This document shows positions 9,545-19,704 of a stretch of DNA of 24,000 nucleotides, one piece after another. The position numbers and the translations under genes are program-made. The DNA is taken from the NCBI GenBank assembly GCA_016649615.1, contig JAENXK010000015.1, positions 3,704 through 27,703 on the forward strand, in the 5' to 3' direction. The notes beneath the pieces were generated by a model. It did not search any database. It saw only the letters and a program-made list of their open reading frames with translations, and was not told the origin of the DNA. This DNA is from Thermoleophilia bacterium. Its GTDB lineage: Bacteria; Actinomycetota; Thermoleophilia; Solirubrobacterales; 70-9. Each line of letters starts with the position of its first letter. The stretch's first letter is position 1.

Positions 9545-9554
9545 CTGACCCATG

Positions 9555-10781
9555 CTAACCATGCCCGATCAGTTCCACCTCGACCGTCTCGCCGGCCTCG
9601 ATGGTTCCCTCCCCCGGAGGCACCAGGACGAGGCCATCGGCTCCGAGCATCGAGGTCAGGATGTGGGAGCCCTGGGCGCCGGTCGGCTCGGCCGTCCAGC
9701 CCCCTTCGCCCGGCTCGATCCGGCACCGGACCGCTTCGGTCCGACCGGGCGTCTGGGCGCGGTCCGCCGCCAGGCGCGCCCGGATTCTCCGGCGGTCGGG
9801 CAGACCGCCACCGAGGGCGGTCAGCGCCGGACGTGCCAGCAGCAGAAAGGTGACCATCGCAGAGACCGGATTGCCCGGAAGCCCGAATGCCAGAGTCTCC
9901 CCGCGCCGGCCGAACCAGGTCGGCTTGCCGGGCTTCAGGGCGATCCGCCAGAACCGCTGCTCGAAACCGAGGTCGATCAGCGCTCCCTTGACGTGATCGT
10001 GTTCACCGACCGAAACCCCACCGCAGACCACGACGAGATCGGCCGCGACCGCCGCCCCGATCGCTTCCCGGGTCGCGGCCGGTTCGTCCCGGACGATCTC
10101 GTTGAGGACGACCTCTGCCCCGGACTCCCGGACCAGTCCGGATATCGAGAACGAATTGGAGTTGCGCACCGCCCCGGGCCGCATCGGATCACCCGGACCG
10201 ATCAGCTCGTCACCGCTACTCAGGACCGCGACCCGGGGACGGCGATAGCAGGACACGCTTCCAGCGCCGACCGAGGCCAACACCCCCTGTTCCGCCGGGC
10301 CGATCACTGTTCCGGAAGAGATCACCTCCGAACCGGGCGCGACATCCTCGCCGGGCCGCCTGATGTGCAGTCCGGGCGGCGGGTCGACCCCGATCCCGAC
10401 CCGGCCTTTTTCCCGAACGGCGTCTTCGAGCGGTACCACCGAATCGGCCCCTTCCGGAATGACCGCCCCGGTCGAAATCGTCATCGCCTGCCCGGGGTCC
10501 AGACCGGCCTCGGATGGATGGCCGGCCCGGGACTCGCCGGCCAGTTCAAGCCAGACCGGTCTCTCCCCGCGAGCGCCGGTAGTGTCGGCGGAGCGGACCG
10601 CGAAGCCGTCCATCGCCGAGTTGTCGAAGGCCGGAACCGGATCGGTGCTCCTCACCGGGCCCGCAACCCTTCTCCCGAGGGAGCGGGCGAGCTCAACGGC
10701 CTCCGATTCGAGTGGAGTGATCGGGTCGAGTACCGCGGCGCGTGCCGCTTCGAGTTCGATCAGCGCTTGGGGGGCCACCAT
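9555..10781 (-). CDS. moeA: Molybdopterin molybdenumtransferase MoeA
   Basis: MoeA blocks are present: NSAMDGFAVR, VCGGVSVGEHD, LPGNPVSAMVTF. I chose the ATG at 10781 (GAAGGTG just upstream). The 20 codons of the longer ORF (to 10841) have only about 50% GC3, which looks non-coding in this genome. Confidence 0.9.
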   Translation of the reverse strand: MVAPQALIELEAARAAVLDPITPLESEAVELARSLGRRVAGPVRSTDPVPAFDNSAMDGFAVRSADTTGARGERPVWLELAGESRAGHPSEAGLDPGQAMTISTGAVIPEGADSVVPLEDAVREKGRVGIGVDPPPGLHIRRPGEDVAPGSEVISSGTVIGPAEQGVLASVGAGSVSCYRRPRVAVLSSGDELIGPGDPMRPGAVRNSNSFSISGLVRESGAEVVLNEIVRDEPAATREAIGAAVAADLVVVCGGVSVGEHDHVKGALIDLGFEQRFWRIALKPGKPTWFGRRGETLAFGLPGNPVSAMVTFLLLARPALTALGGGLPDRRRIRARLAADRAQTPGRTEAVRCRIEPGEGGWTAEPTGAQGSHILTSMLGADGLVLVPPGEGTIEAGETVEVELIGHG

Positions 10782-10827
10782 TTCACCTTCGCCGGGAGGA
10801 TAGAGAGAAGGTGCCAGACTGGCCCCG

Positions 10828-11442
10828 GTGAGAGCCCGCAAGAACCGGAACGAGCAGCGTGCCCGCGAAGCGATCGTCGCCGTCCTGGCCGGAGGACGGG
10901 CCAGTCGGCTGGGTGGCGCAAAGGCGACGGCCGAGCTGGCCGGCCGGCCGCTGATCGAGTATCCGCTGAGCGCGGCGGATCAGGCCGGGCTCGCCACGAT
11001 CGTGGTCGCCAAGGCCGACTCCCCGCTCCCCCCGATCGATCGCGAAATCGTGATCGAGCCCGATCTTCCCCGTCACCCACTAGCCGGAGTTGTCGCCGCC
11101 CTCGAAGTCGGCAGGGACCGCCCCGTCCTGGTGCTCGGATGCGACTTGCCGCTGATCGGCCCGGAACTGCTCCGGTGGCTCGCCGGCCAGTCCGGACCGG
11201 TGGTCGTACCGCTGGCCGAAGGCCACCTTCAGCCGCTTGCCGCCCTCTATCGCCCCGAGATCCTGCCGGCCCTCCGGGCCGGGCTCGAAGCCGCGGTTTC
11301 GCTGAAGGACCTGGTCGTTTCGCTCGATCCGCGGATCGTCGGCGAAGAGGAGCTGGCGCCCTTCGGCGACCCGGCCGAGATGTTCGCCAACGTCAATACG
11401 CCGGAAGACCTCCGGCGGGTGACCGCCCTGCTCGGCGGGTGA
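10828..11442 (+). CDS. mobA: Molybdenum cofactor guanylyltransferase MobA
   Basis: IVAVLAGGRASRLGGAKA nucleotide-binding loop and a later LGCDLPLI block. GTG start. It is divergent from moeA with only a ~46-nt spacer. This is the only + strand gene between 7095 and the window end. Confidence 0.8.
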   Translation: MRARKNRNEQRAREAIVAVLAGGRASRLGGAKATAELAGRPLIEYPLSAADQAGLATIVVAKADSPLPPIDREIVIEPDLPRHPLAGVVAALEVGRDRPVLVLGCDLPLIGPELLRWLAGQSGPVVVPLAEGHLQPLAALYRPEILPALRAGLEAAVSLKDLVVSLDPRIVGEEELAPFGDPAEMFANVNTPEDLRRVTALLGG

Positions 11443-11455
11443 CCGCCGGTCGGGT

Positions 11456-11662
11456 CTACTCGACGCCCCTGGCAACCGGGATCCACTCCGCCACGGGCAG
11501 GTCGGTCTGCCCGGCCATCCAGCAGGCGACCGGTGCCGCCGTCCTCTCGGAGGCGTGAGCGGCGACTCCGGCCAGCTCGAGGATCGCCTCGACCTGCTCC
11601 GGGGTCGGGGGCTGCACGCCGGTCAGCTCGGAAAATTTCTCGATCCACTCGTCACGGGTCAC
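11456..11662 (-). CDS. Small conserved hypothetical protein, DUF6457-like
   Basis: 68 aa with a GTG start, preceded by AAGGAGG at 5-nt spacing (+ strand cctcctt at 11668-11674). Very high GC3. The sequence (DEWIEKFSELTGV...VEAILELAGVAAHASERTAAPVACWMAG) matches my recollection of the small actinobacterial family usually found beside mobA. This is recollection, not a verified hit. Confidence 0.6.
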   Translation of the reverse strand: MTRDEWIEKFSELTGVQPPTPEQVEAILELAGVAAHASERTAAPVACWMAGQTDLPVAEWIPVARGVE

Positions 11663-11704: not shown

Positions 11705-12838
11705 TCATGACTGCTCAGAGTTGTGAGGGCCACGGGCGATCAACCTGGTCGCCGTCGCTTTCCAGGCGGCGGTCAAATCCATTCCGGGGCAGATTCCCAT
11801 GGCTTCAGCCGACCGCGCCGTGATTTCGGCAGTCACCGGCTGCGGAATCACCAGGCCGACCCTGGCCCGGTTGCCGATCGGCGTGACTGATCTCACTTTC
11901 CCGGCGAGCCGGTTGAGGGCCGAATCCCGAGGCGTCTCCCCCGGCATCTCGAGCGAAATCTCCCACGGAAAGACACTGACCGCGACCCTGCCGCTCGCCC
12001 GGTCGACGCTTCGAAGCGTCCCCCCTCCATCGGCCGCGACAACGGTCAGGCCGCGTTCGGTTCCGGTGACCTCCCCTTCGATCACCGCCGCGCCGGTGAG
12101 GTCGGCCACGAAACGGGATTCGGGGCGGGCCGAGATGTCGGCCGGGCTCCCGGTCTGAACGATCTCGCCCCGGTCGAGCACGGCGATCCGGTCACCGAGC
12201 ACCGCCGCCTCGTCGAAGGAGTGGGTCACGATCACCGCCGGCCCGCCCGACTCCGACAGCGCCAGATCGAGCTGCTGCATCGAGTTCGCCCGGGTGGCCG
12301 GATCCAGGGCCGAGAGCGGTTCGTCAAACAACAGAATTCGAGGATCGGATGCCAGGGTCCGGGCCAGCGCCACGCGCTGCCGCTCCCCACCAGAAAGTGT
12401 CTCCGGAATCTCCCCGGCGAGTCCGTCCGCCCCGAACCTGGCGAGCAGTTCCACCGCGCGGCGGCGTCGGGCCGCTCGCGGCCGGGATCGCATTCCGTAA
12501 GCGACGTTTCGCCAGGATTTCATTCCCGGGAACAACGCGTAGTCCTGGAACAGGTAGCCGCAGCGCCGCCGCTCCGGAACCAGGTCGACTCCCTTCTCGG
12601 AATCGAAAAGCGGGTCCGGACCGAGCGTGATCCGCCCGCGGTCCGGGCGCCGCAGCCCGGCTATCAGTCTGAGCAGGGTCGTTTTGCCGGCACCGGACGG
12701 TCCGACGATCGCGAGCCGCTCGCCGGGCTCGACCCGGAACCCGGCGTCGAACGAGAAATCGCGCAGCCGGGACAGCACCGAAACCTCGAGCCGCCCGTCT
12801 GATTTCCGGTCGGAACCGGCCGGGGAGACGGTGCTCAC
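11705..12838 (-). CDS. modC: Molybdate ABC transporter ATP-binding protein ModC with C-terminal TOBE-like domain
   Basis: Walker A GPSGAGKTT, LSGGERQRVALAR, Walker B LLFDEPLSALD, plus a C-terminal beta-rich TOBE-like tail. 4-nt overlap with modB. Confidence 0.85.
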   Translation of the reverse strand: MSTVSPAGSDRKSDGRLEVSVLSRLRDFSFDAGFRVEPGERLAIVGPSGAGKTTLLRLIAGLRRPDRGRITLGPDPLFDSEKGVDLVPERRRCGYLFQDYALFPGMKSWRNVAYGMRSRPRAARRRRAVELLARFGADGLAGEIPETLSGGERQRVALARTLASDPRILLFDEPLSALDPATRANSMQQLDLALSESGGPAVIVTHSFDEAAVLGDRIAVLDRGEIVQTGSPADISARPESRFVADLTGAAVIEGEVTGTERGLTVVAADGGGTLRSVDRASGRVAVSVFPWEISLEMPGETPRDSALNRLAGKVRSVTPIGNRARVGLVIPQPVTAEITARSAEAMGICPGMDLTAAWKATATRLIARGPHNSEQS

Positions 12839-13644
12839 GAGCCCGCCCGATCGAGCCCGCGGTCGGCGCCGAAAAGCTTCACCGAGAGCAGGATCAGCGC
12901 CGCGACGGCGATAAGCACAGCCGAGATCGCCAGCGCGGCGGTGAAACCATCCGGGTCGGAGAACCGCGAGAAGATTGCCAGCGGTGCGGTCTGAGTCACT
13001 CCCTGGAGCGACCCGGCAAACATCAGGGTCGCTCCGAACTCGCCCAGAGCCCGGCCCCAGGCCAGGGCCAGGCCGGATGAAAGTCCGGGGCGCGCCCCGG
13101 GTACCGCCACCGAGACGAAAGTCCGAAACGGCCCGGCCCCGAGAGTGCGTGACGCCTCGAGCCGGCCGCGGTCGAGAGAGGCGAAAGCGGCGACCGCCTG
13201 ACGGAGGTAAAAGGGCGCAGCGACGAAGATGAGAGCGACGATCACGCCGGCGGTCTGCAGCACCAACTCGATCCCGGCATCACTGATCCAGACTCCGAAT
13301 ATCCCCTGCGGTCCGAAGGCGGCAAGAAGGGCGATGCCGGCGACTGCCGGGGGCATGACCAGAGGAAGCTCAATCAGGGTGAGGGCGAAAGAACGGCCGG
13401 GGAAATCCCTCCTGGCCAGGAAGTAGGCCGCCGGGGTGCCGACCACGATGATCACCAGCACCGCCACCACGGTGGTCCGGAGGCTGAGCCAGAGTGCGTC
13501 GAGTACAACCGGCTCACCCAGGGCGGCGATCAGCTGGGCCGGAGTAGTGTCGGCGAAGATCGCGACGGTCGGCAGGGTCAGGAAGAGCAGTGTCACGGCA
13601 AGCGCCAGGAAGGCGATCCGCCCGAACCAGGAGCCGAGGCTCAC
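12835..13644 (-). CDS. modB: Molybdate ABC transporter permease ModB
   Basis: Binding-protein-dependent permease with the EAA loop LEASRTLGAGPFRTFVSVAVPGARPG. Overlaps modA and modC by 4 nt each. Confidence 0.9.
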   Translation of the reverse strand: MSLGSWFGRIAFLALAVTLLFLTLPTVAIFADTTPAQLIAALGEPVVLDALWLSLRTTVVAVLVIIVVGTPAAYFLARRDFPGRSFALTLIELPLVMPPAVAGIALLAAFGPQGIFGVWISDAGIELVLQTAGVIVALIFVAAPFYLRQAVAAFASLDRGRLEASRTLGAGPFRTFVSVAVPGARPGLSSGLALAWGRALGEFGATLMFAGSLQGVTQTAPLAIFSRFSDPDGFTAALAISAVLIAVAALILLSVKLFGADRGLDRAGS

Positions 13645-14441
13645 CCGCCCGGCGGCAGAAACCCGGCCTGCCCCAGCCGCACCGCTCCCTCACCCCCTGT
13701 GAGGCCGTTCAGGTACCGGCGGGCGAGGTCCGGCTCGGGGGCCCCTCTGACCACCGCGCCCGCGTAGGCGATGCGAGGCTGAATTTTTCCCGGGATCGGG
13801 ATCGCCTCGAGGAGGCCCCCGACAGCGCGCACATCGGTCCGGTAGACGATCCCGGCGTCGGCGGCCCCCCGGACCAGTTTGGCGGTGATCGAACCAGCCT
13901 CCGGTTCGCGTGAAGCGGTGTTGGCGAGGATCTTTTCCCGCTCTTCCGGCGCGAGTTCGGCCAGCAGCCTGTCGGAATAGATGCCGACCGGGACGCTGGA
14001 GTCGCCGAGAATCACCGAGCGGTCCGGAGCGGTCAGATCGGCGAGGCCGTCGATCCCGCTACCGGCCGGTGCCGCGATCACGAGTCGGTTGGAGGCGAAA
14101 ACCCGCGGCCGCTCGAGCAGCCCTTCCCGGTGGAGCCGCCTCGGAAGCGCAGTATCGGCCGCGACATAAACGTCCGGTCTGGCTCCCTGCCGGATCTGGA
14201 CCGCCAGCAGGTCGGATCCGGCGAACGACTGGCGGACCTGCGTCGGCGGCAGCGTCCCGGCATAGTCGGCCAGCGCGGTCTGGAGCGAAGAGGCGGCCAG
14301 AACCGTGAGTCGCGGCCGGTCGTCCCCACCACCGGTCCCGCAGGCAGCGATCCCCATGCCGCCCAGGCCGACCAGCAGGGAGGCGAACAGAACCCGGATG
14401 ACCGGACCCGGGGATCTGTGAACCTTCCTGCGCCTAGTCAC
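13641..14441 (-). CDS. modA: Molybdate-binding lipoprotein ModA
   Basis: Signal peptide with lipobox IAAC-G. ModA-like blocks: LTVLAASSLQTAL, QSFAGSDLLAVQIRQGARPDVYVAAD. Confidence 0.85.
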   Translation of the reverse strand: MTRRRKVHRSPGPVIRVLFASLLVGLGGMGIAACGTGGGDDRPRLTVLAASSLQTALADYAGTLPPTQVRQSFAGSDLLAVQIRQGARPDVYVAADTALPRRLHREGLLERPRVFASNRLVIAAPAGSGIDGLADLTAPDRSVILGDSSVPVGIYSDRLLAELAPEEREKILANTASREPEAGSITAKLVRGAADAGIVYRTDVRAVGGLLEAIPIPGKIQPRIAYAGAVVRGAPEPDLARRYLNGLTGGEGAVRLGQAGFLPPGG

Positions 14442-14829
14442 CCGAATCGCCGCGGTCGATCATGACCGAGGTTGCCTTGACCATGGCGGTGGCCTTCACG
14501 CCCGGAGCCAGACCGAGTTCCTCTACCGAGTCCCGGGTGACCGCGGCGGTGATCAGATGCGGTCCCGCCTCGATCTCGACCAGGGCCATCACCCCGTCGG
14601 CCTCGACCGAGCGAACGACGCCCGCAAACCGGTTGCGGGCTGAAAATGTGTCACCGGTTTCGTGCCGGCCGGGGCTGCCCCGCAGGCGTTCGACCTCACT
14701 CACCGGGACCCGTCTCCGGTTTCGCTCATCGCGACCCGTCCTGATCTTGCCGGCCCGGTCCCAGCGCCGGACCGTGTCGGTGCTGACCCCCAGTTGCCGG
14801 GCGGCCTCGCCAATACTCAAATCGGTCAT
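14434..14829 (-). CDS. Molybdate-responsive regulator candidate: MerR/excisionase-type HTH fused to a TOBE (Mop) molybdate-binding domain
   Basis: The N-terminus LSIGEAARQLGVSTDTVRRWDRAGKI is an HTH_17-like motif. The C-terminus SARNRFAGVVRSVEADGVMALVEIEAG...ITAAVTRDSVEELGLAPGVKATAMVKATSVMI is a single TOBE/Mop fold pattern. It overlaps modA by 8 nt. Confidence 0.8.
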   Translation of the reverse strand: MTDLSIGEAARQLGVSTDTVRRWDRAGKIRTGRDERNRRRVPVSEVERLRGSPGRHETGDTFSARNRFAGVVRSVEADGVMALVEIEAGPHLITAAVTRDSVEELGLAPGVKATAMVKATSVMIDRGDSGD

Positions 14830-14850
14830 TGCCTAGGCACTATATAGGCA
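14830..14850. promoter_or_regulatory. Perfect palindromic operator candidate abutting the regulator start codon, with an embedded -10-like TATAGT
   Basis: TGCCTA-GGCACTATA-TAGGCA has 6-bp perfect arms and a 9-bp spacer. It contains the 8-bp palindrome CTATATAG (14840-14847) and CCTAGG. On the minus strand, TATAGT (14839-14844) lies 9 nt upstream of the ATG at 14829. That is consistent with a leaderless or near-leaderless transcript. Confidence 0.4.
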
Positions 14851-14855
14851 GAGCT

Positions 14856-14972
14856 ACCCAAGCGCGAGAGTCCGGCAGCGGCACGATCTCGATGAACCGG
14901 ACCTGATACCCGGCAGAGCGGGCGAAGTCGCAGAACCGCCCGACCTCCTCCGGCCGGACGTTCACCGGGACA
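14856..14972 (-). pseudogene. Relic fragment of a second moaA gene (internal ~39 codons only)
   Basis: Hand alignment: 14877-14951 versus 16249-16323 (inside the intact moaA) gives about 66/75 identical bases. The minus-strand translation ...VNVRPEEVGRFCDFARSAGYQVRFIEIVPLPDSRAWV... parallels MoaA ...VNAVAIRDFTEDEVGRFCEFARSTRYQVRFIEFMPLDGDRSWV..., with a 6-codon gap. There is no start, no radical-SAM Cys motif and no C-terminal domain. Confidence 0.6.
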
Positions 14973-14976
14973 TGGT

Positions 14977-15741
14977 CTAGCGCCCGCGCTCCATCAGATA
15001 CCGCTTGGCCACGGCTCGTGACTCCTCGTCAGCCAGCGCGGCCATCGTGATTTCCGCGTCGCGAAAGCTCTGGCGGGTCGAGTAGGCCTCCTCGACCGAA
15101 GCGTCGACCAGCTGCTTGGTCTGCCTGATCAGGAACCCCGGCTTCTCCGCCAATCTGGCGGCCAGGGCCTCCACCTCGGACTCGAGATCGTCGTCAGCCA
15201 CGACCTGGTTGAGGAAGCCGAGCGATAGTGCCTCGGCCGCCGTGAAGGGACGGCAAGTCAGGACGAGTTCCTTGGTCATCGCCGGTCCGAGCTCTCGCAC
15301 CAGCCGCGGGATCCCGCCCCAGGCGAGCGGGATACCCAGATCGACCTCGGGGATCGAGAACCGGGTCGAGGCGGCTGCCAGCCGCAGGTCGCAGGCTGCC
15401 GCGAGGACAAGCGCGCCACCGACACAGTGACCGTGGATCCTGGCGATGGTGAGCGCCGGGATCGCGCCCACCGCTTCGGCCATCTGTCTGCCGAGGTCGA
15501 TCGTCGACGATGAAGGATCCGCGGTCCCGGCCGCATCAAGGTCGAATCCGGCAGAGAATGCCCGGCCCTCCCCGCCGACGATCACTACTTTCAGGTCCGG
15601 GGTCTCGGCAAGCACGCCGGCGGCCGCGGTCAACTCCCGGAGCGCTGTCGGACTGAGCGCATTGAGGCGCTCGGGCCGGGTCAGAGTGATCCGGGCGAGG
15701 GGCGACGTGGCTTCCAGTTTGAGGGCAGTGAATTCGGTCAT
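14977..15741 (-). CDS. Enoyl-CoA hydratase/isomerase (crotonase superfamily) protein
   Basis: ARITLTRPERLNAL, VVIVGGEGRAFSAGFDL and HGHCVGGALVLAAACDLRLA are classic crotonase blocks. I prefer the ATG at 15741 (MTEFTALKLE...). The ORF track's 15801 start is an alternative. Confidence 0.8.
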   Translation of the reverse strand: MTEFTALKLEATSPLARITLTRPERLNALSPTALRELTAAAGVLAETPDLKVVIVGGEGRAFSAGFDLDAAGTADPSSSTIDLGRQMAEAVGAIPALTIARIHGHCVGGALVLAAACDLRLAAASTRFSIPEVDLGIPLAWGGIPRLVRELGPAMTKELVLTCRPFTAAEALSLGFLNQVVADDDLESEVEALAARLAEKPGFLIRQTKQLVDASVEEAYSTRQSFRDAEITMAALADEESRAVAKRYLMERGR

Positions 15742-15842
15742 CCGGAGGGTCTCAAGCGTACCGTCACACGATCGCCCCATCGCGGACAATCCGTCATCCA
15801 TCTGTTCTTCCCCGTATCGGCGGACACGGTGATGCTCCGGTC

Positions 15843-16838
15843 TCAGCCGCCGATCGCGCTCATCGTGCGGGGCGGCTGCTGGAAGCCGGGTTCGTTGACC
15901 CGGTGCTTCAGCTCTTTTCGCCAGACAGCTTCCCGGATGATCCCGTCGATCTCGGCGTCATCGGCCCCGCTCCTCAGCGGCTCCCGCAGATCGGTCTCGC
16001 TCATCGAGAACAGGCAGGTTCGCAGCTTGCCTTCGGCGGTCAGCCGGATCCGGTTGCAGTCGGAGCAGAACGGTTCGGAGACCGGGTTGATGAAGCCGAT
16101 CTCTCCTCTCCCGTCGGTGAACCGGAAGACCCTGGCGGTGGCCGAGGGCTCGCGCGGGAGTTCCTCGATCGGGTGGATCGCGGCAACCATCTTCCGCAGC
16201 TGTTCACCGGCCAGCACAGATTCCGGAACCCACGAGCGGTCCCCGTCGAGCGGCATGAACTCGATGAACCGGACCTGGTACCGCGTCGAGCGGGCGAACT
16301 CGCAGAACCGCCCGACCTCGTCCTCGGTGAAGTCCCGAATCGCAACCGCGTTGACCTTTATCGGGTCGACTTCAGGGTGGGCGGCGAGCGCCTCCAGTCC
16401 GTCGAGAACCCGGGGCAGGGCATCGCGCCGGGTCATCTGGAAGAAGCGGTCACGCTGGAGTGAGTCGATCGAAACGTTGACCCGCTGGATTCCGGCCGAA
16501 ACCAGCGCCGCGGCATCACGCCCGAGCAGGTAGCCGTTGGTGGTCAGCGACAGATCACTGATTCCCTCGACGGCCGCCAGCATCCCGAGCAGGTCCGGAA
16601 ACTGCTTCCTGACCAGCGGCTCGCCTCCTGTCAGGCGGAGGTCTTCGATCCCCATCCCGGCGAAGATCGATACCAGTCGCGTGATCTCCTCGAAGGTGAG
16701 GATCTCCTCCCGATCCAGCCAGTCCAGGCCTTCCGCGGGCATGCAGTACTGGCAGCGGAAGTTGCAGCGATCAGTGACCGAGACCCGCAGGTCGCTGATG
16801 CGCCTTCCGTGGCCGTCGTGGAGTTGTCGGTCAGCCAC
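15843..16838 (-). CDS. moaA: GTP 3',8-cyclase MoaA (radical SAM)
   Basis: LRVSVTDRCNFRCQYCMP (CxxxCxxC), a GGEPL block, and the C-terminal auxiliary-cluster motif CSDCNRIRLTAEGKLRTCLF. The GTG start shares one base with the sulfatase stop (TAGTG). Confidence 0.95.
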   Translation of the reverse strand: MADRQLHDGHGRRISDLRVSVTDRCNFRCQYCMPAEGLDWLDREEILTFEEITRLVSIFAGMGIEDLRLTGGEPLVRKQFPDLLGMLAAVEGISDLSLTTNGYLLGRDAAALVSAGIQRVNVSIDSLQRDRFFQMTRRDALPRVLDGLEALAAHPEVDPIKVNAVAIRDFTEDEVGRFCEFARSTRYQVRFIEFMPLDGDRSWVPESVLAGEQLRKMVAAIHPIEELPREPSATARVFRFTDGRGEIGFINPVSEPFCSDCNRIRLTAEGKLRTCLFSMSETDLREPLRSGADDAEIDGIIREAVWRKELKHRVNEPGFQQPPRTMSAIGG

Positions 16839-18502
16839 TACCTTGCGCCAGCTTCTTCCAGAGCCGTCCGCGTCCGCTCCAGGAGGTCCTGGTACCCGGA
16901 ATCGATGACCTCTCCCGAATCCCGGTCAACCAGGTTGCGGATCTGATCCGGATCCGCCTTCATGTCGTACAACTCGTACTCCGGGTCCTTCCCGCCGGAC
17001 TCGTCCAGGTACACCGCGTACATCGCCTCCGGCGACCTCACCGCCCGGATCTGGTTCGGCCGGGCGACCACGTCCCTGTAGGCGGTGCCGGACTGGTGGT
17101 CGTCAAACGTGAAGTAGGAGAATTCCTGGACCGACCGGGCCGGCTCCGGGTGTTCACTCACCGCCGACCAGGCGAGCCCTGACGAGGCCAGCCGGTTCCG
17201 GTCGGGCTTCGATTCAGCGGCCAGCACCGGCGTCAGATCCCGGCCCCTCACCCCGTCGCCCGATGTGTCGACCCCAGCGATCGATGCGAGGGTCGGCAGG
17301 ATGTCGCAGAGCGAAGCCGGAGCCTCACTGGCCGCCGGCTCGGAGAACAGGATCGGGTTCGAGATCACCAGTGGCACGTTGATCGTCTCGTCGTAGGCGT
17401 TGAACATCTTCTGTCTGAGCCCGCCGTGCGACATGCCCATCTCGCCATGGTCGGAAGTCCTGACAATCACCGTCTTCGAGCGGAGCGACTCATCGTCTTC
17501 CGGGTCACCTAGCGCGGCCAGGATCCGGCCGACCTTTTCGTCGACGAGGCGCTGCAGGTGGGCGTAGAAGCGGCAGTAGTCGAGCTTCTCCTCGTCGCCG
17601 TTCAACCCCCCGAGAAAGGCGGCCTGGCCGAGCTTAATCGTCGCCTGCACCCGTGGCTTGGAGGCAAGGTTTTCGCCAGCTGACTCCGGCAGATCGATCT
17701 CGCCCAGATCCGCCCATTCGGAGCGGTCGTAGCCGCCCTGTTCAAAAGTGGACGGGTACCCGAGTACGTCATGCGGGTTGACCAGTGAGAAAATCAGGGC
17801 CCAGGGCTCGGGCGGGGGATCGGCCAGGAAGCGCTCGGCCTGGCGGGTGAAGTCCTCGTCAAAGCCCTGCCTGCTTCTTCCGGCCCCGCTGCCGCCCCCG
17901 AAATGAGATGCCTCAATGTTCTCGCCGGCATCGGGAGGCTCCCAGTCGTGCAGCCCGTAGCTGTCGGCCAGGTGATCGGTGTCACCCGGGCCCCAGTCGC
18001 CGTCCACCGGCTGACTGAGATGCCATTTGCCTTTCAGCACCGTGCGGTATCCGGCCCGTTTCAGGACCGTGGCGATGTTGGGCGTGGCCGGATCGAGGTC
18101 GCGTTCCTCGTCGCCGCCGTCCGGGCGGCGTACCGCGCCTTTTGCCACCGTGCCGAAAGCGTCGGCCGCCGACAGTTCCCCGTTTCTCACCGCGGCGAAC
18201 GCGCCCCGGACGCTCCAGTGGGCATGCCGCGGGTTTGCCTTCGCACCCCCCTGGGTCAGGGTCAATTTGACGCCGTGCTCGTCCGGCCAGCGACCGGTCA
18301 GAAGCGACGCCCGGCTCGGCGAGCACATACAGCTTGCGGCGCAGGTCTCGGTGAAGGTGACCCCGGTCCGGCTGATCTCGGCATCGGCCGGAGTCAGCTT
18401 CTCGAGCCACTCGGGATCGTCCGGCCAGTGCTGCGGCCGGCGCTGCTGGTCGGTGATGATCAGGAGAAGGTTCGGTGGAACTTCGCCGCCGCCATTGCTC
18501 AC
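16838..18502 (-). CDS. Cys-type sulfatase family protein (formylglycine-dependent), apparently cytoplasmic
   Basis: LLLIITDQQR and the sulfatase signature CMCSPSRASLLTGRWP (C-x-P-x-R). Downstream blocks: KGKWHL, TSDHGEMG. I see no signal-peptide-like hydrophobic N-terminus. Confidence 0.85.
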   Translation of the reverse strand: MSNGGGEVPPNLLLIITDQQRRPQHWPDDPEWLEKLTPADAEISRTGVTFTETCAASCMCSPSRASLLTGRWPDEHGVKLTLTQGGAKANPRHAHWSVRGAFAAVRNGELSAADAFGTVAKGAVRRPDGGDEERDLDPATPNIATVLKRAGYRTVLKGKWHLSQPVDGDWGPGDTDHLADSYGLHDWEPPDAGENIEASHFGGGSGAGRSRQGFDEDFTRQAERFLADPPPEPWALIFSLVNPHDVLGYPSTFEQGGYDRSEWADLGEIDLPESAGENLASKPRVQATIKLGQAAFLGGLNGDEEKLDYCRFYAHLQRLVDEKVGRILAALGDPEDDESLRSKTVIVRTSDHGEMGMSHGGLRQKMFNAYDETINVPLVISNPILFSEPAASEAPASLCDILPTLASIAGVDTSGDGVRGRDLTPVLAAESKPDRNRLASSGLAWSAVSEHPEPARSVQEFSYFTFDDHQSGTAYRDVVARPNQIRAVRSPEAMYAVYLDESGGKDPEYELYDMKADPDQIRNLVDRDSGEVIDSGYQDLLERTRTALEEAGAR

Positions 18503-19704
18503 GGTCGACCGTCCGCCTCGCCGCGGTCGACTGCCGCGATCACTGCGCGTCCGACCTCGATAGCCCGGCCCAGGGACCGGTCACTGATCCGGTCGGCCGT
18601 ATCGGTCGGAGCGTGGTAGTCGGGGATGCTCTCCGCCTGAACGCCCAGGGTGGCCGCGCGCCCGCCACGCACCAGGACCGGGGTCGAGTCATAGGGCAGG
18701 CCCGAACCGAGCGCAATCGGACTTAGTCCGAGATCGGGTCGCTCTCGTTCGATTCTCCTCATCACTTCCAGTATCCCGGAATCGGCCGGCCAGCTCTGCA
18801 TAGCGTTGCCTTCGCGCTCGAGGTAACGGAGCGGGGCGTCTCCGCCGACCCCGTCGAAGTTCAGAAACAGCCAGCCGGAGGTCTTGGTCGTGCGCAGGAA
18901 CGATCGCATCCCGAGCACGCCCGACTCCTCGCTGCCGGTGACCAGCAGAACCAGACGGGTCCCCTTCAGCGGTTCCACGGCGACCTCCGAAGCCAGTACG
19001 CCGGAGACCGCCGCGCCGGAAGCGTTGTCGTTGGCGCCGGGCACGTCTTCCCCGCGAATTTCCCTTTCGAGCATCAGGGCGGCTCCCAGCCCGCAGAGCA
19101 GGCGGGCCGCCCCGACCAGACCCCGGCCTGCCCGGTGTCGGCCGAGAACCGGGTCGAGCGCCTGAATGCCCAGTGCCGCCCCGACCAGGCCGGAGAGCCT
19201 GCCGAGATAAGGAGTCACCGAGGGGTGAAACATCAGCCCGCTACGCGAACTGTCGAGATGGGACACAAGACAGAGCGTCCGCACGACCTCTCCCTTCGGC
19301 TCGATCGTGGCCACCAGGTTGCGGCTCTCCCCGTGACAGGTCAGGCGGGATTCGCCAATTCGGCCGAAGCGGCCCTCGTCGAATCCGGCCGCCAGCGCGG
19401 CCAGCGAAAGCCCGGTGCCGAGGCGCGGGGAGAGCCGCCCGACCAGGCCGGCTGACGCAGCGGCGGCCAGAACCGGTCCGTAAAGCGAACCGAACGAAGC
19501 GCGGGACCTGAACCCGGTCAGATCCACCCCTGCCAGCCCGGATTCGAGCAGCCGTTCCCGCAGCGCCTCGGCTCCTTCCCGCTCGGCGTCCGAGCAGGGA
19601 CGCCGGGGGCCGACCCCGGAGGCCAGCATCGTCGTCCACTCGCGGGCCCTGGCCACGGCGCCGGGTCCCGAAGCGGGACCGGGCCCGCGAGAAGCCGGCT
19701 TCAC
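18499..19704 (-). CDS. M28-family metallopeptidase (aminopeptidase-like)
   Basis: The M28 metal-ligand blocks occur in order: SHLDSS, GANDNASGAAV, GSEESG, DYHAPTD. GTGA overlaps at both ends. Confidence 0.75.
   Translation of the reverse strand: MKPASRGPGPASGPGAVARAREWTTMLASGVGPRRPCSDAEREGAEALRERLLESGLAGVDLTGFRSRASFGSLYGPVLAAAASAGLVGRLSPRLGTGLSLAALAAGFDEGRFGRIGESRLTCHGESRNLVATIEPKGEVVRTLCLVSHLDSSRSGLMFHPSVTPYLGRLSGLVGAALGIQALDPVLGRHRAGRGLVGAARLLCGLGAALMLEREIRGEDVPGANDNASGAAVSGVLASEVAVEPLKGTRLVLLVTGSEESGVLGMRSFLRTTKTSGWLFLNFDGVGGDAPLRYLEREGNAMQSWPADSGILEVMRRIERERPDLGLSPIALGSGLPYDSTPVLVRGGRAATLGVQAESIPDYHAPTDTADRISDRSLGRAIEVGRAVIAAVDRGEADGRP

Follow-up and report, generated by a model that had tools for sequence, protein, structure and literature searches.

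Extra copies of moaA are known from Mycobacterium tuberculosis, where moaA1, moaA2 and moaA3 occur as full-length genes or pseudogenes in duplicated or acquired moa clusters. In Escherichia coli, ModE, which joins a helix-turn-helix (HTH) DNA-binding domain (ModE_N, LysR-like) to two Mop/TOBE domains, represses modABC in response to molybdate. Bacterial genomes also hold remnants of genes at the junctions of rearrangements. Here we describe a fragment of moaA (the relic) upstream of the mod operon in a 24,000-nt stretch of DNA of a Thermoleophilia bacterium, referred to as the window. Like the mycobacterial paralogues, the relic is an extra moaA-derived sequence in an actinobacterial genome; unlike them, it covers about 43 codons, has no second copy at this locus in relatives and groups with the local gene. 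It resembles the junction remnants in its homology to a nearby functional gene, in having neither start codon nor catalytic domains, in its indels and changes at invariant residues, and in being confined to the lineage in which the neighbouring gene was inserted. It comes without a mobile element, integrase or target-site duplication, and it may have arisen as filler DNA, by a template switch, or by duplication plus deletion. As a gene remnant the relic is ordinary: it adds one more case to a known type of genomic scar and is not a new mechanism. Its surroundings recall the ModE system in that an HTH plus TOBE gene stands first in the mod operon and a conserved palindrome overlaps the promoter; they differ from it in that the regulator is of the MerR/excisionase type, has a single TOBE domain and is predicted to be made from a leaderless transcript. 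The relic is not part of the conserved mod promoter element.

All the genes relevant to the relic lie on the minus strand (Table 1). Among the window ORFs scanned, none carries a transposase or integrase Pfam domain, and no inverted or direct repeats bracket positions 14851-15842 apart from the moaA match itself, so that the insert bears neither of these marks of an insertion carried by a mobile element. On the plus strand, a 668-aa ORF (9552-11558) without a Pfam match lies opposite to moeA and in another frame of mobA, and is almost certainly a spurious high-GC ORF.

Table 1. Features of the molybdenum island around the moaA relic (positions in the window).
Feature	Position	Strand	Remarks
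M28 peptidase	18499-19704	-	
Sulfatase	16838-18502	-	
moaA, intact resident	15843-16838	-	Radical_SAM + Mob_synth_C; orthologous and syntenic with sister moaA
Matching core in intact moaA	16249-16323	-	codons 172-197, EVGRFCEFARSTRYQVRFIEFMPL
Spacer, moaA stop to crotonase start	15742-15842	-	101 nt, no homologue found
Crotonase / enoyl-CoA hydratase (ECH_1)	14977-15741	-	254 aa from ATG 15741; ORF reaches 15801
moaA relic	14855-14971	-	MoaA codons ~162-204; core 14877-14951 well kept, 5' 20 nt weakly alignable
Conserved element, putative promoter/operator, TGCCTATATAGTGCCTAGGCA	14830-14850	-	21 nt; -10-like TATAGT + 10-bp palindrome TGCCTAGGCA
MerR-type HTH + TOBE (molybdate-binding) regulator gene	14434-14829	-	first gene of the mod operon
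modA	13641-14441	-	
modB	12835-13644	-	
modC	11705-12838	-	
DUF6457, mobA (+ strand), moeA, moaD-moaE, moaC, mog/moaB-like	downstream of modC		

The core of the relic and its counterpart in the resident moaA agree at 66 of 75 nt (88%), without gaps and as a direct repeat. An earlier reading of the DNA from its letters alone (the sequence-only reading) had reached this count by hand, with the same orientation as moaA, and both a repeat search and blastn within the window reproduced it. With the 147-nt spacer 14830-14976 as the query and the window as the target, blastn gave an E-value of 8e-23 for the core, the extent of which was upheld together with its identity; the remaining window matches to the spacer are 12-30 nt long, with E-values of at least 0.1. 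When MoaA was compared with the window by tblastn, just moaA and the relic were found, the latter with the 22/32 identical residues that had been noticed before (E 3.6e-10). The minus-strand translation of the spacer is HVPVNVRPEEVGRFCDFARSAGYQVRFIEIVPLPDSRAWVALPI followed by a stop; as that reading had also seen, the frame ends at the TAG of 14840-14842 within the palindromic element, where the stop is incidental. Towards the 3' side, the homology reaches ~14855 (...TGGGT) by way of a compensated +1/-1 indel pair, and towards the 5' side it is weaker and extends to ~14971 with in-frame deletions. The claim of similarity on both flanks is thereby confirmed; the single 18-nt gap proposed with it is one of two possible alignments of the 5' part, which can equally be drawn with a 3-nt and a 9-nt gap. 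The whole relic measures about 115 nt, and it agrees with moaA without interruption over 18-20 nt at most.

A search with the spacer against 86 related loci (~1 Mb) gave 41 blastn matches at E<1e-3, each of them on the relic itself or within a moaA gene, which argues against both chance similarity and a dispersed repeat. The latter, a REP- or MITE-like element, was an objection that the sequence-only reading had raised against itself, and the search disposes of it: there are two copies in the window, and the ~1 Mb of related loci matches inside moaA only. More than 10 contigs, assembled independently and drawn from several samples, carry the identical 147-nt spacer, which is therefore not an assembly artefact or a chimera.

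A functional moaA, encoding GTP 3',8-cyclase, was defined as an ORF of ~330 aa with an N-terminal radical-SAM CxxxCxxC cluster and a C-terminal Mob_synth_C domain. The relic has no start codon and neither cluster, and its frame ends in the operator. It departs from the consensus at 4 of the 18 amino-acid columns conserved at 90% or more; 32 orthologues average 0.25 such departures, and none of them has more than 2. The substitutions F194I and M195V fall within the invariant RFIEFMPL motif, the conserved N163 and F170 are missing, and there are in-frame deletions in addition to the frameshift pair (+1/-1). Changes at invariant residues, together with indels, indicate that the relic evolves without constraint at the protein level, and the earlier view of a dead moaA fragment stands on these features and on homology combined with truncation. 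Gene remnants are recognised by co-linear homology, relaxed constraint and absence from the orthologous position in close relatives, all of which are found here.

By its regulator, the DNA belongs to an uncultured member of the Solirubrobacterales. The comparison with relatives was based on 80 genome loci retrieved with the regulator as the query. In the closest three (L007, L008 and L013), the regulator is 95, 92 and 90% identical, respectively, and moaA shares 84-86% nucleotide identity with the resident gene. L007 and L008 have the order sulfatase-moaA-regulator-modA of the window minus the insert; in L013, moaA and the sulfatase gene upstream of it are ~1.4 kb further apart. The distance from the moaA stop to the operator is 67 nt in L007, 78 nt in L008 and 37 nt in L013, versus 992 nt in the window, where it is made up of the 101-nt spacer, the crotonase gene and the relic. 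Neither crotonase nor relic is present at the orthologous position in these three loci, which have 37-78 nt of unrelated spacer instead. In eight more distant loci, a same-strand moaA lies immediately upstream of the regulator, again without crotonase and relic. The arrangement in sisters and distant loci indicates that the adjacency of moaA and operator is ancestral, and the crotonase gene and the relic are therefore a lineage-specific insertion. The proposed link between the relic and the insertion of the crotonase gene gains support from this pattern, since both are missing together in the three sisters and in the eight more distant loci.

Of the two arrangements that the sequence-only reading had envisaged in relatives, moaA directly adjacent to the mod operon is the one observed, and no intact second moaA occupies the orthologous position. 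In none of the 80 loci does a second moaA lie between moaA and the regulator, and wherever moaA adjoins the regulator it is a single copy. The carriers of the relic form one population, with contigs that are 98.7-99.98% identical and a relic that is the same in all; strains differing by up to 1.3% elsewhere show zero polymorphism in the relic, where only ~2 differences would be expected. In JGI metagenomes, a scan for an operator preceded at 25-55 nt by the moaA core gave 0 matches, as did one for the operator plus the start of the regulator, so that they added neither carriers nor empty sites. Intermediate forms documenting the event, such as a longer relic, were not found among the sequences searched.

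The start of the crotonase gene was set by alignment with its orthologues. Crotonases at least 90% identical come only from the window's own population. The next orthologues are 76-88% identical and occur in nine other loci, in a context foreign to the molybdenum island: in 6 of the 9, a convergent gene for an FMO-like monooxygenase lies downstream of the crotonase gene, and an alpha/beta hydrolase or FAD reductase is often found upstream. All nine are devoid of moaA-like DNA, which indicates that the crotonase gene did not bring the relic along from its usual neighbourhood. No GC anomaly was seen across the crotonase gene, and the 101-nt spacer between moaA and crotonase returned only self matches in BLAST comparisons with all loci and the window. 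The last ~25 nt of this spacer resemble the leaderless-promoter motif upstream of the crotonase orthologues. In most of those examined (L087-L092), the motif CTGCGGTAGCGTCC stands 7-8 nt before a GTG start and looks like a leaderless promoter. The window counterpart (GGTACGCT, at ~15755-15765) is degraded and lies 15 nt before the ATG; with its motif degraded and displaced in this way, the inserted crotonase gene may depend on read-through from moaA.

The source of the relic is less easily read from its distances. Over the 75-nt core, it shares 66 positions with the resident moaA, 65 with L013, 63 with L007 and 62 with L008. Since the resident gene itself agrees with these three at 64-67 of the 75 positions, the 88% identity of the relic represents similarity at the level of orthologues and not recent copying. 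When all 123 nt that can be aligned are counted, the relic matches the resident gene and L007 at 88/123 each, compared with 102-108/123 between real orthologues and the resident moaA, and a column bootstrap did not separate the resident gene from L007 as its nearest neighbour. The distances thus do not single out the resident moaA over the sister genes, and it is a candidate template. The codons GGG176, CGG177, CGG190 and GTx204 are common to the relic and the moaA genes of the window, L007, L008 and L013, unlike most other lineages; such clade-specific markers place the source in the local moaA lineage and not in a distant paralogue. GGG186 of the relic is intermediate between GAC of the clade and CGG of the resident gene, and codon 202, the one site in conflict, is GCT (Ala), as in more distant lineages, its own clade having Ser or Arg. 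The resident moaA contains no mosaic block relative to L007, L008 and L013. A word-indexed search of proteins with the 44-aa peptide of the relic gave no candidates, which says nothing about the source since three shared 5-mers were required, and an exhaustive search of cluster representatives gave 4 matches, the best with 68-69% identity, and no closer donor MoaA.

The sequence-only reading had left the choice between a former moaA paralogue and a partial duplication. Given that relatives have no second copy here and that the relic shares synonymous codons with the local clade, the first option loses ground and the relic is better read as a copy of part of the local gene. The divergence is uneven along the relic, with 12% in the core and much more in the flanks, which fits a source under moaA-like selection, or misaligned flanks, better than it fits uniform neutral decay. 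On a rough estimate, with a neutral rate ~3x the constrained one, the distances would be compatible with a copy made after the split from L007 and L008.

Taken together, we think it probable that the relic is a non-functional moaA fragment that was copied locally, as filler, when the crotonase cassette was inserted, and that has been drifting since. The starting layout would have been sulfatase-moaA, followed within less than 80 nt by the operator, the regulator and modABC. A single rearrangement in the window lineage, accounting for both crotonase and relic, would then have put ~1 kb into the short spacer between moaA and the operator. The insert would have consisted of a crotonase cassette from a monooxygenase-linked locus elsewhere, in the same or another genome, which may have brought ~25 nt of its own, now degraded leaderless-promoter motif, and of a short copy of the interior of moaA, for which the resident gene may have been the template. 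At the right-hand junction, illegitimate recombination or end-joining repair would have added the moaA piece, probably as filler or templated DNA. This junction would have ended 4 nt from the 21-nt promoter/operator, which selection would have kept intact, and afterwards the fragment would have drifted without constraint, serving as spacer DNA alone.

The relic might instead be what remains of a foreign or paralogous moaA, either a second copy or one transferred together with the crotonase gene, which would have diverged while still functional and lost most of its length only later. The steep contrast between 12% divergence in a universally conserved core and far higher values in the flanks would suit such a gene, and even the distant L062 has 66/75 identity to the resident moaA in the core. 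Ala-202 (GCT) also points to distant lineages, L061 and L078 reach 86/123 and nearly equal the sister clade, and a natural MoaA with STGYQ...DRAW exists (P0241). This origin is nevertheless unlikely, given that the related loci have no second moaA at the position of the relic, that the nine contexts of crotonase orthologues contain no moaA-like DNA, that the relic has four codon states specific to the local moaA lineage, and that the closest database MoaA is ~69% identical to it at the protein level.

A more elaborate scenario, in which a double-strand break between moaA and the mod operon was mended as a patchwork, with the crotonase cassette and a ~115-nt copy from the moaA 1.4 kb away captured together as two unrelated fragments, or in which the core was kept by gene conversion or a role in cis, appears quite unlikely; if true, the capture of multiple fragments or of templated filler would be of a kind rarely documented in bacterial genomes. 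Homology-facilitated illegitimate recombination is a very unlikely route. Incoming DNA with moaA and crotonase would have recombined within the resident moaA at its left end and illegitimately near codon 162 at its right end, and what is now the relic would be the 3' half of the original moaA, shortened later by a deletion. The shared orientation and the position of the relic beside the original operator would both be explained, as would the apparently ancestral GTG165 and GTC167, which the relic keeps and which have since changed in the resident gene. However, this route requires a second deletion that took out codons 205-331 together with the old spacer and stopped precisely at the operator, the 3' part of the resident moaA has no donor-like block, and moaA next to crotonase was absent among the sampled orthologues.

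The 21-nt element that the relic approaches is intact in the window and abuts the ATG of the regulator gene, as expected for a leaderless transcript. It follows the consensus TGCCTAT-N4/5-TGC-N-TAGGCA, with a -10-like TAnnnT and the perfect palindrome TGCCTAGGCA, and occurs just upstream of the regulator start in 62 of the 80 Solirubrobacterales/Thermoleophilia loci, directly abutting it in most. In this order of bacteria, the element probably provides the mod operon with its leaderless promoter and its molybdate-responsive auto-operator; a search of the literature gave no description of it and nothing specific on HTH-TOBE regulators in Actinobacteria. On the upstream side of the operator the sister genomes share no conserved DNA, so nothing suggests that the relic contributes to mod promoter function. 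The sequence-only reading had the relic serve as the upstream region of the operon, which holds for its place just upstream of the promoter and fails for a role in it. Rfam searches of the relic region gave no match at the gathering threshold or at E<=1, its RNA fold is no better than that of shuffled controls (z-score 0.28), and neither a terminator nor a canonical promoter was found at the relic, so that it matches neither a Moco riboswitch nor another described RNA.

That the fragment was kept for a function, be it in cis at the mod promoter, as an RNA element of the transcript spanning moaA and crotonase, or as the partner of moaA in gene conversion, is accordingly hard to credit. The better preservation of the core than of the flanks would agree with it, as would the absence of relic differences among strains up to 1.3% apart, where the expectation is only ~2. 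Against this, the operator is the same in the sisters, where the DNA upstream of it is unrelated and not conserved, the Rfam, fold, terminator and promoter results are all negative, the exact runs with moaA do not exceed 18-20 nt, and the relic, being in the same sense as moaA, cannot pair with moaA mRNA. Inert spacer upstream of an intact, presumably leaderless mod promoter is the best reading. Chance similarity of GC-rich coding-like segments or an assembly chimera, for which the high GC content of the window speaks and nothing else, is refuted by the E-value of 8e-23 in the window, by a match that is in frame and co-linear with MoaA, by the restriction of matches to moaA in 1 Mb of related DNA and by identical junctions in more than 10 independent contigs.

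The relic marks the crotonase gene as a recent, lineage-specific intruder in an otherwise conserved molybdenum island, and it places the site of insertion no more than a few bases from the conserved, putatively leaderless promoter/operator, which is useful for dating and delimiting the insertion. Of molybdenum biology itself it tells little. For annotation it serves as a warning: no second moaA or small ORF is to be called at its position.

Two contigs deserve a separate mention. In L093 (Logan SRR13106737), the N-terminal two thirds of the regulator P0251 resemble the window and its C-terminus resembles L008; the contig has 21 mismatches to the window, probably clustered toward the L008-like end of the regulator, and it is either a natural recombinant of co-occurring populations or a chimeric assembly. 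L092 (ERZ27271186) carries an 81%-identical crotonase gene beside an FMO-like gene and comes from the same sample as the window-type contig L003. If this crotonase gene shares a genome with the window, the one in the molybdenum island would be a diverged second copy and not a relocated single gene.
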